Assembly: GCF_003334335.1 (NCBI RefSeq) | Contig: NZ_QOWQ01000048.1 | Length of the DNA stretch: 30,915 bases | Source: Escherichia coli | Lineage (GTDB): Bacteria; Pseudomonadota; Gammaproteobacteria; Enterobacterales; Enterobacteriaceae | Direction: 5' to 3' (one strand) | Shown here: piece by piece, positions 6,449 through 30,915 of the stretch | Layout of the letters: each line of letters starts with the position of its first letter | How positions within the stretch are numbered: position 1 is the stretch's first letter | Made by a program: the position numbers and the translations under genes | The notes under the pieces: model-generated | What the model was told of the DNA's origin: nothing | The model's input: the letters and a program-made list of their open reading frames with translations, nothing else | The model's database searches: none

Positions 6449-6660
<212 letters not shown>

Positions 6661-14009: not shown

Positions 14010-14828
14010 ATGACCACACGCGTGATTGCTCTCGACTTAGACGGCACCTTATTGACCCCGAAAAAGACCCTGCTTCCTTCATCGATAGAAGCCCTGGCCC
14101 GCGCTCGCGAAGCAGGCTATCAATTAATCATCGTCACAGGTCGCCATCACGTCGCTATTCATCCTTTTTATCAGGCGCTGGCGCTGGATACACCTGCTAT
14201 TTGCTGTAATGGCACCTATTTGTATGATTATCATGCAAAAACCGTGCTGGAAGCGGACCCAATGCCCGTTATTAAAGCCCTGCAACTCATTGAGATGCTG
14301 AATGAACACCACATTCACGGTCTGATGTATGTCGATGATGCAATGGTCTATGAGCACCCGACCGGGCATGTCATTCGCACATCTAACTGGGCGCAAACCC
14401 TGCCGCCGGAACAGCGTCCGACTTTCACACAAGTCGCTTCTCTGGCTGAAACGGCGCAACAAGTTAACGCCGTATGGAAGTTCGCCCTGACGCACGATGA
14501 CCTGCCGCAATTGCAGCATTTTGGTAAGCATGTCGAACATGAACTGGGACTGGAGTGTGAATGGTCCTGGCACGATCAGGTTGATATTGCACGCGGCGGC
14601 AACAGCAAAGGTAAACGTTTGACGAAATGGGTTGAGGCGCAAGGTTGGTCGATGGAAAACGTCGTGGCATTCGGCGATAACTTTAATGATATCAGTATGC
14701 TGGAAGCCGCTGGTACAGGCGTGGCGATGGGCAACGCCGATGACGCGGTAAAAGCGCGCGCCAACATTGTGATTGGTGATAACACCACCGACAGCATTGC
14801 CCAGTTCATTTATAGCCACCTGATTTAA
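14010..14828 (+). CDS. ybhA: HAD-family pyridoxal-phosphate / sugar phosphatase
   Basis: Start at the internal ATG (MTTRVIALDLDGTLL...) carrying the HAD DxDGT motif, giving 272 aa. Confidence 0.9.
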   Translation: MTTRVIALDLDGTLLTPKKTLLPSSIEALARAREAGYQLIIVTGRHHVAIHPFYQALALDTPAICCNGTYLYDYHAKTVLEADPMPVIKALQLIEMLNEHHIHGLMYVDDAMVYEHPTGHVIRTSNWAQTLPPEQRPTFTQVASLAETAQQVNAVWKFALTHDDLPQLQHFGKHVEHELGLECEWSWHDQVDIARGGNSKGKRLTKWVEAQGWSMENVVAFGDNFNDISMLEAAGTGVAMGNADDAVKARANIVIGDNTTDSIAQFIYSHLI

Positions 14829-15887
14829 TCAGGCGGTTATCGACACACTTTTAATTTGCGCGTACAGCCACAGGCCAGGTTTGATCGCCAGTTCATCCCT
14901 GGCCCACGGGCTGATACGCGCCCACAGCGTTTTACCGCCGACTTCCAGTTCCACTTCCACCTGGCCGTTGTCGTCATAACTATTAACAACTTTTGCCCGC
15001 AATACGTTACGAATGCTGGTTTGCTGCGGCGGTTGTAAAACCAGAGAAACATCGGAAGCCTGAATGCGGATACGTAGCGCAGCTTGCAGCGGTTCGTCCA
15101 GCTTATTGACCCACAAATGCTGATCGCCCAGCGCCAGCGCGGTCATCGCGTAATGCGGATGATGCTCAAGCACCGTCACTTTCAGAATGCTACTTTGTTG
15201 CTCTTTCGGCAGCCACGGATTCATCACGCTACTGCCCCACACTTCCTCCAGCGCGCCAAAGGCTTTCACCTGACCGTTTTCCAGTACCATCACTCTGTCT
15301 GCCAGATGGAGGATCTCATCCAGCGAATGGCTGACATACAACATCGGAATGTTGATTTCCCGTGTCAGCCGTTGCAGATAAGGCAACAGTTCGCGTTTAC
15401 GCGGAATATCCAGTGACGCCAGCGGTTCATCCAGCAACAGCAATTCCGGTGCTGTCAGCAAAGCCCGACCAATCGCCACGCGCTGTTTTTCGCCTCCGGA
15501 CAGGCTGCCTGGTAAACGGTCAAGCAACGGTTCAATGCCTAAAAGCGCCACCAGCTTATCGAACTGATCGACCATACTTTTCGACATGCCGTAGCGCAGA
15601 TTGCCACGCACTTTGTAATGCGGGAACAGCCGCGCATCCTGAAAAACATAGCCAACGCGACGCTTTTCCGGCGTCAGGCAGATACCTTTTTCGGCATCAT
15701 TTAGTACCCGCCCATTGAGGACAATCCGCCCTTTTTGCGGGCGCGTCAGTCCACTGATGGCGTTAATCAGCGAAGTTTTTCCGGCACCGGAGACGCCAAA
15801 GATAGCAGTGATGCCATTGGCGGGCAGCGTTTCATTAATAGTCAGGCAATGGTTGCCCAACGTCTGGGAAAAATTCAGTTCCAGCAT
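14829..15887 (-). CDS. modC: Molybdate ABC transporter ATP-binding protein
   Basis: Walker [10 protein letters not shown] and ABC signature LSGGEKQR; 352 aa. Confidence 0.95.
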
Positions 15888-27123: not shown

Positions 27124-27504
27124 ATGAAAATGACAAAACTGGCCACATTATTTCTGACTGCCACTCTAAGCCTTGCCAGCGGTGCCGCACTGGCTGCCGA
27201 TAGCGGAGCGCAAACTAATAACGGCCAGGCAAACGCCGCAGCTGATGCGGGCCAGGTAGCCCCTGACGCCCGTGAAAATGTCGCGCCAAATAACGTCGAC
27301 AATAACGGGGTAAATACCGGTTCTGGCGGCACAATGCTGCATTCGGATGGTTCTTCAATGAACAATGACGGAATGACCAAAGATGAAGAGCACAAGAACA
27401 CCATGTGCAAAGATGGTCGCTGTCCGGATATCAATAAAAAGGTACAAACCGGTGATGGCATCAATAATGATGTCGATACCAAAACCGACGGTACCACGCA
27501 GTAA
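27124..27504 (+). CDS. ybgS: Small secreted protein
   Basis: A 126-aa product with a signal peptide and a low-complexity Asn/Gly/Ala-rich body. Confidence 0.85.
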
Positions 27505-27525
27505 CCCTGCAAAATAGCCAATAAT

Positions 27526-27555
27526 GGGAGAGCGGAGTCTCTCCCTTTTAATTTT
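27526..27555 (+). terminator. ybgS intrinsic terminator
   Basis: GGGAGAG-cggagt-CTCTCCC followed by TTTTAATTTTT. Confidence 0.6.
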
Positions 27556-27617
27556 TCACTTCTAAAAGCAGTATGATGTCATAAAGTTAAGTGAGAATAA
27601 TTAAGAGATGACTCGTC

Positions 27618-28559
27618 ATGGCGCACTCACACTCACACACGTCCTCACACCTGCCAGAAGATAATAATGCTCGTCGCTTGTTGTATGCTTTCGGCGTGAC
27701 TGCCGGGTTTATGCTGGTAGAAGTCGTTGGTGGTTTTCTTTCTGGTTCTCTGGCATTGCTGGCCGATGCGGGTCATATGTTGACCGATACTGCCGCCCTG
27801 CTTTTCGCCCTACTCGCCGTGCAATTTTCACGTCGTCCTCCCACCATTCGCCACACTTTCGGTTGGCTAAGACTGACCACGCTCGCGGCGTTTGTGAATG
27901 CCATAGCCCTCGTGGTAATTACCATTTTGATTGTCTGGGAGGCGATAGAACGCTTCCGCACGCCGCGTCCGGTCGAGGGCGGCATGATGATGGCAATTGC
28001 CGTGGCTGGGTTGCTGGCAAATATACTTTCTTTCTGGTTACTTCATCACGGCAGCGAAGAGAAAAACCTCAACGTACGAGCAGCGGCACTGCATGTGCTC
28101 GGGGACCTGCTGGGTTCGGTTGGGGCTATTATTGCCGCGTTGATTATTATCTGGACTGGCTGGACACCTGCTGACCCCATTCTCTCGATACTGGTGTCGC
28201 TTCTGGTTCTGCGTAGCGCGTGGCGACTGTTGAAAGATAGCGTGAATGAATTACTTGAAGGTGCACCGGTATCGCTGGATATCGCTGAACTGAAGCGTCG
28301 TATGTGCCGGGAAATCCCGGAAGTCCGCAATGTGCACCATGTACATGTATGGATGGTAGGCGAGAAGCCGGTGATGACGTTGCATGTGCAGGTGATCCCG
28401 CCACACGATCACGATGCCTTGTTGGATCAGATCCAACACTACCTGATGGATCACTATCAGATTGAGCACGCCACCATTCAGATGGAATATCAACCTTGTC
28501 ATGGGCCAGACTGCCACCTGAATGAAGGGGTGTCTGGCCATTCACATCATCACCATTAA
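27618..28559 (+). CDS. zitB: Cation-diffusion-facilitator zinc efflux transporter
   Basis: A 313-aa product with a His-rich N-terminus and C-terminus. Confidence 0.95.
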
Positions 28560-29275
28560 TGGGACAGCGCGCGTGAGCCTCTTTCACGTGCGCTGTTGAT
28601 CCACATCCGGCTGCCGTTGAGCGCAATAAAGGTCAGGATGATGTACTCCAGAGACATGGCGTAAACGCCCTGAAGTGCAAAAATAACGACGCTAATCACG
28701 TTAATAATCACCCACAACAGCCAGTTTTCCACATACTTACGCGTCATCAGAATCATTGCCACGATAGATAACACCATCATGCATGAATCCCAGAACGGGA
28801 AAGCGTCCGGTTGCAGTTCAGGCATCACAACCTGTAATCCTAATGCTTGCATGATCATGACTGCCACGCGGGTCAAAAATGCAAACACCGGATTGATAAA
28901 TACCGTCATCAGACCAATCGAAACAACGCAAACCGCCAACCAGCTGAGTGCCTTCGGCAATGGCAACCAGCGAATTTTCAACTCCGCCTCGTTCTGACTG
29001 GTTTGTCGCGACCACGCATACCAACCGTAAATATTCGCGGCAAAGAAAAACACCTGTAATAGCAGGCTGGCATACAGCTGAATCTGAAAGAAAATAATGC
29101 CAAACAAGGTGACGTTGATCAGGCCAAAGAAGTAGTTGCTGATCTTCTCCAGACTGGCAAGGCCAATACACAGCAACCCGGCGATCGTGCCTACCGCTTC
29201 GATCCATGAGAGATCATAACCGCCTGCCCCTATTGGTATATGTACCAGGATATTCTGCACACTAAAAAAATCCAT
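28556..29275 (-). CDS. pnuC: Nicotinamide riboside transporter
   Basis: A 239-aa membrane protein; its stop overlaps the zitB stop (shared TTAA). Confidence 0.95.
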
Positions 29276-29312
29276 CTTTCCCCCAAAGCGTAACGTTACG
29301 CCTTATTATTCG

Positions 29313-30356
29313 TTATCCACGTAGTGTAGCCGCAAAATCCAGCATACGATTGAGCGGCACCAGCGCCCTCTCTCGCAGCCTTTCATCAACATGAACCTCG
29401 TGATTGCTTCCTTCCTGTTCTAATGCCTCTGCGATGGCCTGAAGGCCATTCATGGCCATCCACGGACAATGCGCGCAGCTGCGGCAGGTTGCACCCTCAC
29501 CTGCGGTTGGTGCTTCCAGTAACTCTTTATCTGGCACCGCCTGCTGCATTTTGTAGAAAATACCCCGATCGGTTGCCACAATAAGCCTCTGATGTGGCAA
29601 TGTTTTCGCAGCAGCGATCAGTTGACTGGTGGAACCGACCGCATCCGCCATATCGACAATAGCTTGTGGTGATTCTGGATGCACCAGTATGGCAGCATCC
29701 GGGTATTCTTCTTGCAAGCGGGTTAACGCCTGAGTCTTAAATTCATCATGCACAATACAGGCACCCTGCCAGCATAGAATGTCTCCACCCGTCTGTTTTT
29801 GCACGTAACGCCCCAGATGTTTGTCGGGTGCCCAGATGATTTTTTCACCCAAACTATCAAGATGATCAATAAGTTCGACGGCAATGCTTGAAGTTACCAC
29901 CCAATCTGCGCGCGCTTTTACCGCAGCAGAAGTGTTGGCGTAGACGACGACAGTACGATCGGGATGGGCATCGCAAAATGCGTTAAATTCTTCAACAGGG
30001 CAGCCGAGATCCAGTGAACATTCAGCCTGAAGTGTCGGCATCAGAATTGTTTTTTCCGGACTGAGAATTTTGGCGGTTTCTCCCATAAATCTCACCCCAG
30101 CGACTAACAAAGTAGAAGCGGGATGCTTTGCACCGAAGCGCGCCATTTCCAGAGAATCAGAAATACAGCCACCGGTTTCTTCTGCCAGTTGTTGAATTTC
30201 GGGATCGGTATAGTAGTGGGCAACCATCACCGCATTACGTTCTTTTAGCAGACGTTTTATCTTCTCGCGGTAATACGCTTTTTCATCAATGCTTAACGGC
30301 GTCGGCTTCGGGGGGAAAGGATAAATCGCCGTGTCTGGATCAAACATTACGCTCAT
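29313..30356 (-). CDS. nadA: Quinolinate synthase
   Basis: A 347-aa product matching NadA. Confidence 0.95.
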
Positions 30357-30632: not shown

Positions 30633-30708
30633 TGGTGGGTCGTGCAGGATTCGAACCTGCGACCAATTGATTAAAAGTCAACTGCTCTACCAACTGAGCT
30701 AACGACCC
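30633..30708 (-). tRNA. lysQ: tRNA-Lys (anticodon UUU), with encoded CCA
   Basis: The reverse complement reads GGGTCGTTAGCTCAGTTGGTAGAGCAGTTGACTTTTAATCAATTGGTCGCAGGTTCGAATCCTGCACGACCCACCA. The lysQ name is assigned by position and is tentative. Confidence 0.93.
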
Positions 30709-30840
30709 CTTGCGGGATTATGCTGCCTTAATCATTCAGGATGGTGGGTCGTGCAGGATGACTCGACTTCGTCTCGCCCTTCGGGCCGTTGCTAACGCAA
30801 CGTTATCCTTCACGTTCTCTACCAGTAACCACCTTTAAAT

Positions 30841-30915
30841 TGGTGGGTCGTGCAGGATTCGAACCTGCGACCAATTGATTAAAAGTCAACTGCTCTACCA
30901 ACTGAGCTAACGACC
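30841..30915 (-). tRNA. lysZ: tRNA-Lys (UUU), second copy, missing its first 5' nucleotide at the window edge
   Basis: Identical to the 30633..30708 copy over 75 nt. The gene name is tentative. Confidence 0.9.

Follow-up and report, generated by a model that had tools for sequence, protein, structure and literature searches.

The zitB/pnuC junction

The window analysed here is a stretch of 30,915 nucleotides of Escherichia coli DNA (contig NZ_QOWQ01000048.1, assembly GCF_003334335.1), and all positions are those of the window. Two genes converge in it: zitB (27618-28559, + strand), which codes for a CDF-family zinc exporter of 313 residues, and pnuC (28556-29275, − strand), which codes for a nicotinamide riboside transporter of 239 residues, both as given by the list of open reading frames and by RefSeq. 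The zitB stop codon is the TAA at 28557-28559; the pnuC stop codon, also TAA, occupies 28558 down to 28556 on the − strand, where the + strand shows TTA (28556-28558). Both stop codons are thus contained in the tetramer TTAA at 28556-28559, as a direct reading of the + strand from 28545 to 28563 (CAT CAT CAC CAT TAA TGGG) shows. The original prediction had described zitB and pnuC as convergent with both stops in this one TTAA, and the sequence, the open reading frames and RefSeq all agree with it. It had also stated that the stops overlap by 4 nt; this is correct for the coding sequences, which share 4 nt when the stops are counted, but not for the stop codons, whose own common part is the central TA, that is, 2 nt.

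PnuC matches the NCBIfam model NF011926 over its full length (464 bits, cut-off 335), and so does ZitB the model NF002923 (648 bits, cut-off 408). Moreover, the tail SARERGS(R/H)A(L/F)S of PnuC and a His-rich tail of ZitB are present in 81 of 81 loci, with the stop codons at the homologous place. An annotation artefact or a run-on reading frame was considered as the origin of the overlap, and was rejected, given two conserved tails and full-length hits to the family models. The identical 4-nt overlap is annotated by RefSeq in strain BUCT2930, which is 100% identical to the window over a 2-kb query (27400-29400), and the ends of zitB and pnuC are again identical in RefSeq in four further E. coli strains (five strains in all). 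The 2-kb region is present in 5426 of 5426 complete E. coli genomes.

The local gene order in RefSeq is galM-gpmA-aroG-ybgS-zitB-pnuC-nadA, followed by a tRNA cluster. nadA (29313-30356, − strand) is located directly upstream of pnuC on the same strand, at a distance of 37 nt (list of open reading frames and RefSeq), and nadA and pnuC form what we take to be an operon, the likely source of the − strand transcripts that arrive at the junction. The upstream limit of the zitB transcription unit is set by the intrinsic terminator of ybgS (27526-27545, + strand), which is followed by TTTTAATTTT. Term-seq in MG1655 (Adams et al., 2021; supplementary file 3) places the ybgS 3' ends 67-68 nt ahead of the start of zitB.

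Conservation of the junction in enterobacterial species

The junction was surveyed in one genome per species, with PnuC as the query. Eighty loci were kept, from many enterobacterial genera and including a few records labelled Pantoea or Erwinia, and about 300 more distant PnuC loci were left out of the survey. zitB is convergent with pnuC, and follows it directly, in 80 of the 80 other species. The gap between the two coding sequences is −4 nt at 68 of these loci, 0 at nine, −7 nt at two and +3 nt at one. Read in the orientation of the window, the 4-nt overlap is TTAA at 41 loci, CTAA at 10, CTAG at 9 and TTAG at 8; the coding sequences that abut do so as TGATTA (five loci), TGATCA (three) or TAATTA (one), both 7-nt overlaps are TCACTGA, and the one locus with a gap of +3 nt reads TAACGGCTA. 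At the outer positions of the tetramer the base varies among synonymous stop codons, and the central TA is fixed.

From this comparison of sequences, the junction between these two unrelated transporter genes appears to be old and to date back to an ancestor of the Enterobacteriaceae. If both stop codons are under purifying selection and few indels are tolerated, exactly such a pattern of drift would result; since selection on the stops suffices, the conservation of the junction does not by itself call for a selected interaction between zitB and pnuC. Nor is a 4-nt overlap rare, because it represents the commonest length class of convergent overlap. The lengths of convergent overlaps jump at 4, a length that only CTAA, TTAA, CTAG and TTAG permit (Lillo and Krakauer, 2007). 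The number of convergent overlaps in E. coli was 58 in that study, and 75 convergent overlapping pairs were counted later (Huvet and Stumpf, 2014).

Stem-loops downstream of both stop codons

A stem-loop is predicted after both stop codons in 81 of the 81 loci, with a mean energy of −21.3 kcal/mol over the 50 nt past the zitB stop and of −28.2 kcal/mol over the 70 nt past the pnuC stop. In the window, hairpin A (28564-28596, + strand), the proposed 3' stem-loop of the zitB mRNA, lies within codons 227-238 of pnuC, and hairpin B (28504-28539, − strand), the proposed 3' stem-loop of the nadA-pnuC mRNA, lies within codons 296-308 of zitB. They are separate elements, about 25 nt apart across the stop codons. 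The general family profiles stop at residue 231 of PnuC and at residue 293 of ZitB, so that both hairpins are mostly encoded by lineage-specific C-terminal tails. A search of Rfam gave no family match at the junction.

The stability of the folds was compared with that of recoded sequences in which synonymous codons were drawn according to E. coli codon usage, leaving the protein unchanged; the same null was used for species of higher G+C content. Interior windows of zitB and pnuC have an average z of about −0.1 under this null, which is therefore calibrated. In each gene, the last window is the most stable fold of the antisense strand (among 46 windows along pnuC, where it is the window of hairpin A, and 60 along zitB). 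RNAalifold predicts both hairpins, on both strands, from 30 colinear sequences; from the full alignment of 81 sequences, all that it recovers is the seven core pairs of hairpin A (+ strand), with next to nothing on the − strand, because indels in the His-rich tail of ZitB disturb the alignment.

Hairpin A starts 5 nt past the zitB stop and consists of a 13-bp stem (28564-28576 with 28584-28596; the inverted repeat is 92% complementary) and a 7-nt loop. Its energy is −26.8 kcal/mol in the zitB-sense (+) RNA, with a z of −4.0 against shuffles, and −21.5 kcal/mol in the pnuC-sense (−) RNA, where the hairpin is weaker because one G-U pair becomes a C-A mismatch. The recoding test gave, for the + strand, −26.8 kcal/mol observed against −13.8 ± 4.4 kcal/mol for the null (p = 0.003) and, for the − strand, −21.9 against −14.1 ± 3.8 kcal/mol (p = 0.037); the corresponding median z values for the 81 loci are about −2.2 (+) and −1.65 (−). 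Pairing is retained in 85.7% of the cells over 80 distinct sequences. Covariation over the same 80 sequences is weak and not above the controls. The variants found within E. coli are wobble-type or restoring changes in the zitB sense. Synonymous diversity shows a modest dip at the hairpin (rank 23 of 228 windows). Selection for structure at hairpin A is plausible, but part of its conservation may stem from coding constraint, the PnuC tail being conserved as protein.

Hairpin B starts at 28539, 17 nt past the pnuC stop along the pnuC-sense (−) RNA, and is built from an 8-bp stem (28504-28511 with 28532-28539) plus inner pairs, with a folding energy of −23.8 kcal/mol in the pnuC sense (−) and −25.9 kcal/mol in the zitB sense (+). 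On recoding, none of 300 sequences was as stable as the + strand (−26.3 observed against −17.0 ± 3.0 kcal/mol for the null), and the − strand gave −24.3 against −19.5 ± 3.7 kcal/mol (p = 0.10); the median z over the 81 loci is −2.18 (+) and −2.40 (−). Both members of a pair have changed in 48 cells, compared with 19.9 ± 3.4 in column shuffles (0 of 500 shuffles reach 48) and with 3-9 in controls in which the partner was slid by 1-3 columns, although, with loci related by descent, counts set against shuffles cannot be read as probabilities. Inside the genus Escherichia, two pairs have been swapped completely (GGCCAGAC/GTCTGGCC versus GGCCGGAT/ATCCGGCC), and the swaps fall on third codon positions, CCA GAC...GTG TCT in the window being CCG GAT...GTA TCC in close Escherichia relatives. 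Three distant loci (L039, L062 and L075) have a hairpin of different sequence in the same place after the pnuC stop. Synonymous diversity again dips modestly (rank 54 of 301 windows). Selection for structure at hairpin B is likely.

The G-U wobbles point to the strand on which each hairpin could act. The wobble cells of hairpin A number 72 in the zitB sense (+) against 31 on the opposite strand, and those of hairpin B 60 in the pnuC sense (−) against 15. These counts fit each hairpin serving the gene that ends just upstream, with the proviso that base composition, and the choice of sites that happen to be synonymous, confound any comparison between strands. In E. coli, the recoding test of hairpin B contradicts the strand assigned by the wobbles, since the hairpin is more significant in the zitB sense (0/300) than in the pnuC sense (p = 0.10). 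Taken together, the folds predicted from the sequences make it appear that, in each gene, the final 12-13 codons also specify a stem-loop at the 3' end of the mRNA of its neighbour.

Termination signals and transcript ends

A scan for terminators (a hairpin followed by at least five T in 8 nt) returned no site at the junction on either strand. A canonical intrinsic terminator is accordingly rejected: there is a GC-rich stem-loop, but no U-tract, the 8 nt that follow the stem having mostly 3 T in the case of hairpin A and mostly 1-2 T in the case of hairpin B (81 loci). A stable stem-loop lacking a U-tract is thus what is found just downstream of both zitB and pnuC. On the + strand, the GC skew ranges from −0.27 to −0.32 between 28650 and 28800 and from +0.1 to +0.24 between 28050 and 28450, and the sign of these values means that both read-through RNAs are richer in C than in G; many membrane-protein genes have such an excess of C over G on their antisense strand, and the skew is not a prediction of rut sites.

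As there is no DNA between the two stops and no canonical intrinsic terminator, each mRNA must end inside the other gene, and the two transcripts have to overlap by 4 nt or more. The original prediction, that each transcript extends antisense into the partner gene, therefore stands, and pnuC-zitB is also part of a published list of excludons (see below). Its remark that no intergenic terminator is present is accurate insofar as there is neither an intergenic space nor a canonical hairpin with a U-tract, but it passes over the stem-loop that follows each stop, inside the partner. To speak of "no terminator" is most likely misleading, in that it implies unbounded read-through, whereas conserved stem-loops follow both stops. 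The mutual interference that was also suggested may take place between zitB and pnuC, as a possibility and not as a result. The observation put forward as able to refute the prediction, namely transcripts that stop short within the coding region of their own gene, is impossible for a functional mRNA and so does not discriminate.

Published maps were inspected for ends at the junction. Among the Term-seq ends and Rho-termination regions curated by Adams et al. (2021), none is assigned to pnuC or zitB and none falls within MG1655 783600-784199 (coordinates on U00096.3 being 812441 minus the window coordinate, a conversion derived from the ybgS Term-seq end and assuming no indels); low expression could explain the absence of ends at the junction from that study, but the absence still weighs against 3' ends set by the hairpins. 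Neither zitB nor pnuC is mentioned in the supplements of TERMITe (2025) and SMRT-Cappable-seq (2018). The literature on zitB termination and on pnuC antisense transcription yielded nothing specific to the junction, and for pnuC-zitB the literature searched gave no report of reciprocal expression, of cleavage by RNase III or of colliding RNA polymerases.

Discussion

The reading that we prefer, with a probability of about 0.55, is that the 3' ends of the zitB and nadA-pnuC mRNAs are set or protected by the stem-loops embedded in the partner gene, through Rho-type release of the transcript and exonuclease trimming. With no DNA between the stops, the 3' untranslated region of each gene would reside inside the last codons of the other. 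RNA polymerase would pass the stop and enter the partner gene, where the RNA made would be antisense, untranslated and richer in C than in G, which is the kind of transcript on which Rho acts. Transcription would be stopped within the partner mainly by Rho and occasionally by head-on collision of polymerases; 3'-to-5' exonucleases would then trim the RNA back to the stem-loop, which in turn would protect the mRNA. On this scheme the zitB mRNA is expected to end near 28597-28605 and the nadA-pnuC mRNA near 28495-28503, about 40 nt and 55 nt, respectively, into the partner gene, so that the antisense overlap of the mature mRNAs would amount to roughly 90-110 nt (about 28495-28605) and no further. 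The scheme follows what is known of Rho-dependent transcripts of E. coli, which end precisely just after stable stem-loops that lack U-tracts; such stem-loops shield the RNA from PNPase and RNase II and are closely followed by rut sites (Dar and Sorek, 2018). We infer, for zitB and pnuC, that the hairpins mark the 3' ends and that this is the termination route used.

It is conceivable that the hairpins have no role in the formation of 3' ends. A shift of a stop codon could have persisted as a neutral, frozen accident, the hairpins being by-products of the encoded tails, namely of the GC-rich Ser/Ala/Arg codons of PnuC and of the Gly-Pro-Asp...Ser-Gly-His and His-rich codons of ZitB. Convergent overlaps are in general explained by stop-codon mutation (Lillo and Krakauer, 2007), the PnuC tail is conserved as protein, covariation at hairpin A goes little beyond the controls, and synonymous diversity is only mildly reduced at both hairpins; moreover, runs of His and Asp codons are naturally self-complementary (CATGATCATG), as in L039 and L062. 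We nevertheless consider this account unlikely, because recodings that preserve the protein fold much less well, because the interior windows of zitB and pnuC show no excess of stability, and because distant taxa carry hairpins of different sequence at the same position. The pairing of hairpin B, in particular, has been kept through synonymous double changes at third positions (CCA/TCT to CCG/TCC and GAC/GTG to GAT/GTA). If the hairpins do function, they could instead terminate transcription directly, with neither Rho nor trimming, hairpin A being a weak intrinsic terminator with an imperfect U-tract (UGUUGAUCC), or A and B together acting as a bidirectional terminator of the collision type. 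The stem of hairpin A is long, GC-rich and stable (−26.8 kcal/mol), both hairpins fold on both strands, and there are precedents: the bidirectional terminators described for convergent pairs in E. coli are Rho-independent stem-loops unlike intrinsic terminators, and intrinsic terminators are predicted inside the partner coding sequence in 19 + 2 of the 58 convergent overlaps of E. coli. However, few T follow the stems (mostly 3 in the next 8 nt for A, 1-2 for B), fewer than the five that the scan looked for. The bidirectional element described is one hairpin shared by the two genes and placed between them, but the zitB/pnuC junction has two separate ones, and release driven by collision gains in efficiency when both genes are strongly expressed. 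For these reasons we regard direct termination at the hairpins as doubtful.

A different view of the junction, and one that we regard as improbable, is that read-through is unbounded and regulatory. In this scenario the pair would work as an excludon, in which zinc-induced zitB lowers pnuC, and nadA-pnuC, when derepressed through NadR, lowers zitB, by polymerase collision and by RNase III cutting of the duplexed RNAs. A canonical terminator is indeed absent from the junction, the pair is classed as a convergent excludon in no fewer than half of the 58 RNA-seq samples of MG1655, and the tight junction seen in 80 of 80 species could be explained by a selected interaction. The listing is nonetheless silent on regulation, since expressed pairs with overlapping coding sequences satisfy the coverage criterion automatically, and the conservation of the junction is explained more simply by purifying selection on the stops, where any indel alters a protein tail. 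The collision model, besides, works best for highly expressed pairs, and the conserved stem-loops just past the zitB and pnuC stops argue for bounded 3' ends, as the preferred scheme of Rho-type release and trimming would have it. A bolder version combines the approximately 100-nt overlap and the hairpins into a reciprocal post-transcriptional switch, working through an RNase III duplex or polymerase collision, which would have been selected as a link between zinc stress and NAD salvage across the Enterobacteriaceae, with both tails kept partly for the sake of the partner's RNA element; this we hold to be very improbable.

The overlap of zitB and pnuC is in itself already known: it is annotated in RefSeq, it belongs to a class described long ago, it has been catalogued as a transcriptional overlap, and it is an ordinary case of its kind. 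Its geometry is identical to that of the 4-nt convergent overlaps, in which the stops share the central TA (Lillo and Krakauer, 2007; Huvet and Stumpf, 2014), and there, as for zitB/pnuC, termination signals must sit in the coding sequence of the partner, as the authors noted; a Rho-independent terminator was predicted inside the partner coding sequence for one gene of the pair in 19 cases and for both genes in two (Lillo and Krakauer, 2007). There is no difference in kind between these overlaps and zitB/pnuC, which adds the persistence over 80 species and the use of all four tetramers. Likewise, pnuC-zitB is found among the 165 convergent excludons of MG1655 listed by ExcludonFinder, in at least 50% of 58 RNA-seq samples, and terminators embedded in the neighbour's transcription unit are the usual cause of such overlaps (146/165) (Sanmartin et al., 2025). 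Membership in this list rests on RNA-seq coverage, whereas the behaviour that defines the class is mutually exclusive expression with RNase III processing; the overlap of pnuC and zitB takes in coding sequence as well as untranslated regions.

There is also a likeness with the protective stem-loops of Dar and Sorek (2018), in that the hairpins of zitB and pnuC are likewise stable, free of U-tracts and located just downstream of the gene, followed by sequence with more C than G. They differ from those in being embedded in the coding sequence of the other gene, and hence under a double constraint, and in that the role of Rho and exonucleases is one that we infer. The overlapping bidirectional terminators of Ju et al. 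(2019) and Wang et al. (2022) are also comparable, since they too involve a convergent E. coli pair and hairpins that form on both strands and are unlike intrinsic terminators. In termination of this collision type, the stem-loop positions RNA polymerases that meet head-on (Ju et al., 2019; Wang et al., 2022). In contrast to a single common element of that sort, zitB and pnuC have two hairpins that flank the stops.

What zitB/pnuC contributes is modest: a well-conserved case of dual coding, in which C-terminal codons appear also to encode a conserved stem-loop for the transcript of the neighbour. Changes made at the 3' end of either gene, whether by recoding, by a C-terminal tag on PnuC or ZitB or by a clean deletion, are likely to alter the stability of the other gene's mRNA, and synonymous sites in tails of the zitB/pnuC type should not be counted as neutral.

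The window holds a second tight tail-to-tail junction, at which the stop codon of ybhA (TAA, 14826-14828) abuts that of modC (14829-14831). The ybhA/modC pair is also among the convergent excludons of MG1655 (Sanmartin et al., 2025).

Variation at the zitB/pnuC junction

The coding sequences of the convergent zitB and pnuC genes usually overlap by 4 nt in the related enterobacterial loci, and several of these loci depart from that arrangement. The stops abut, with a gap of 0 nt (TGATTA, TGATCA or TAATTA), in L033, L039, L047, L049, L050 and L068 (Buttiauxella) and in L057, L071 and L078; the coding sequences overlap by 7 nt (TCACTGA) in L038 and L062, and lie 3 nt apart in L075. At these variant junctions PnuC is longer or shorter by one residue, and a predicted hairpin is kept after each stop. 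Within E. coli, strain 2015C-4498 (NZ_CP027552.1) matches the 2-kb query that spans the junction (window 27400-29400) in two places, one of which covers only query positions 881-2001; a "cation transporter" is annotated in this strain in place of zitB, and its zitB gene has probably been disrupted at a point upstream of where it meets pnuC.

Sequences flanking zitB

The zitB-sense RNA beyond the hairpin that follows the zitB stop (28564-28596) is unusually structured at 28597-28720 (+ strand), a stretch that runs antisense to the final third of pnuC. The predicted fold of 28557-28720 has an energy of −56.5 kcal/mol (z −4.8 relative to shuffled sequences), and the antisense strand of pnuC codons 195-226 gives z values of −2.2 to −2.6 when compared with synonymous recodings. 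On the other side of zitB, a terminator scan places the intrinsic terminator of ybgS at 27526-27555 (stem at 27526-27545, followed by TTTTAATTTT), matching Term-seq 3′ ends of MG1655 located 67-68 nt 5′ of the zitB ATG (Adams et al., 2021). Only about 65 nt are left for a zitB promoter, unless read-through from ybgS supplies zitB.

Other features of the window

Another tight tail-to-tail pair is found at 14826-14831, where the TAA stop of ybhA (pyridoxal phosphatase; 14826-14828, + strand) abuts the modC stop (14829-14831, − strand; TCA as read on the + strand), with a 0-nt gap; modC-ybhA also figures in the published list of MG1655 excludons (Sanmartin et al., 2025). Two tRNA-Lys(UUU) genes lie on the − strand at 30633-30708 and 30841-30916, and an Rfam match to RtT (30742-30909, − strand; 60 bits) takes in the spacer that separates them and extends into the second gene. 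The tRNA cluster of BUCT2930, a strain with an identical zitB/pnuC junction, is spaced differently from that at 30633-30915. A match to naRNA4 (CssrE, a nucleoid-associated non-coding RNA) at 6512-6582 (− strand) scores 60.7 bits, barely exceeding the Rfam gathering score of 59.5.
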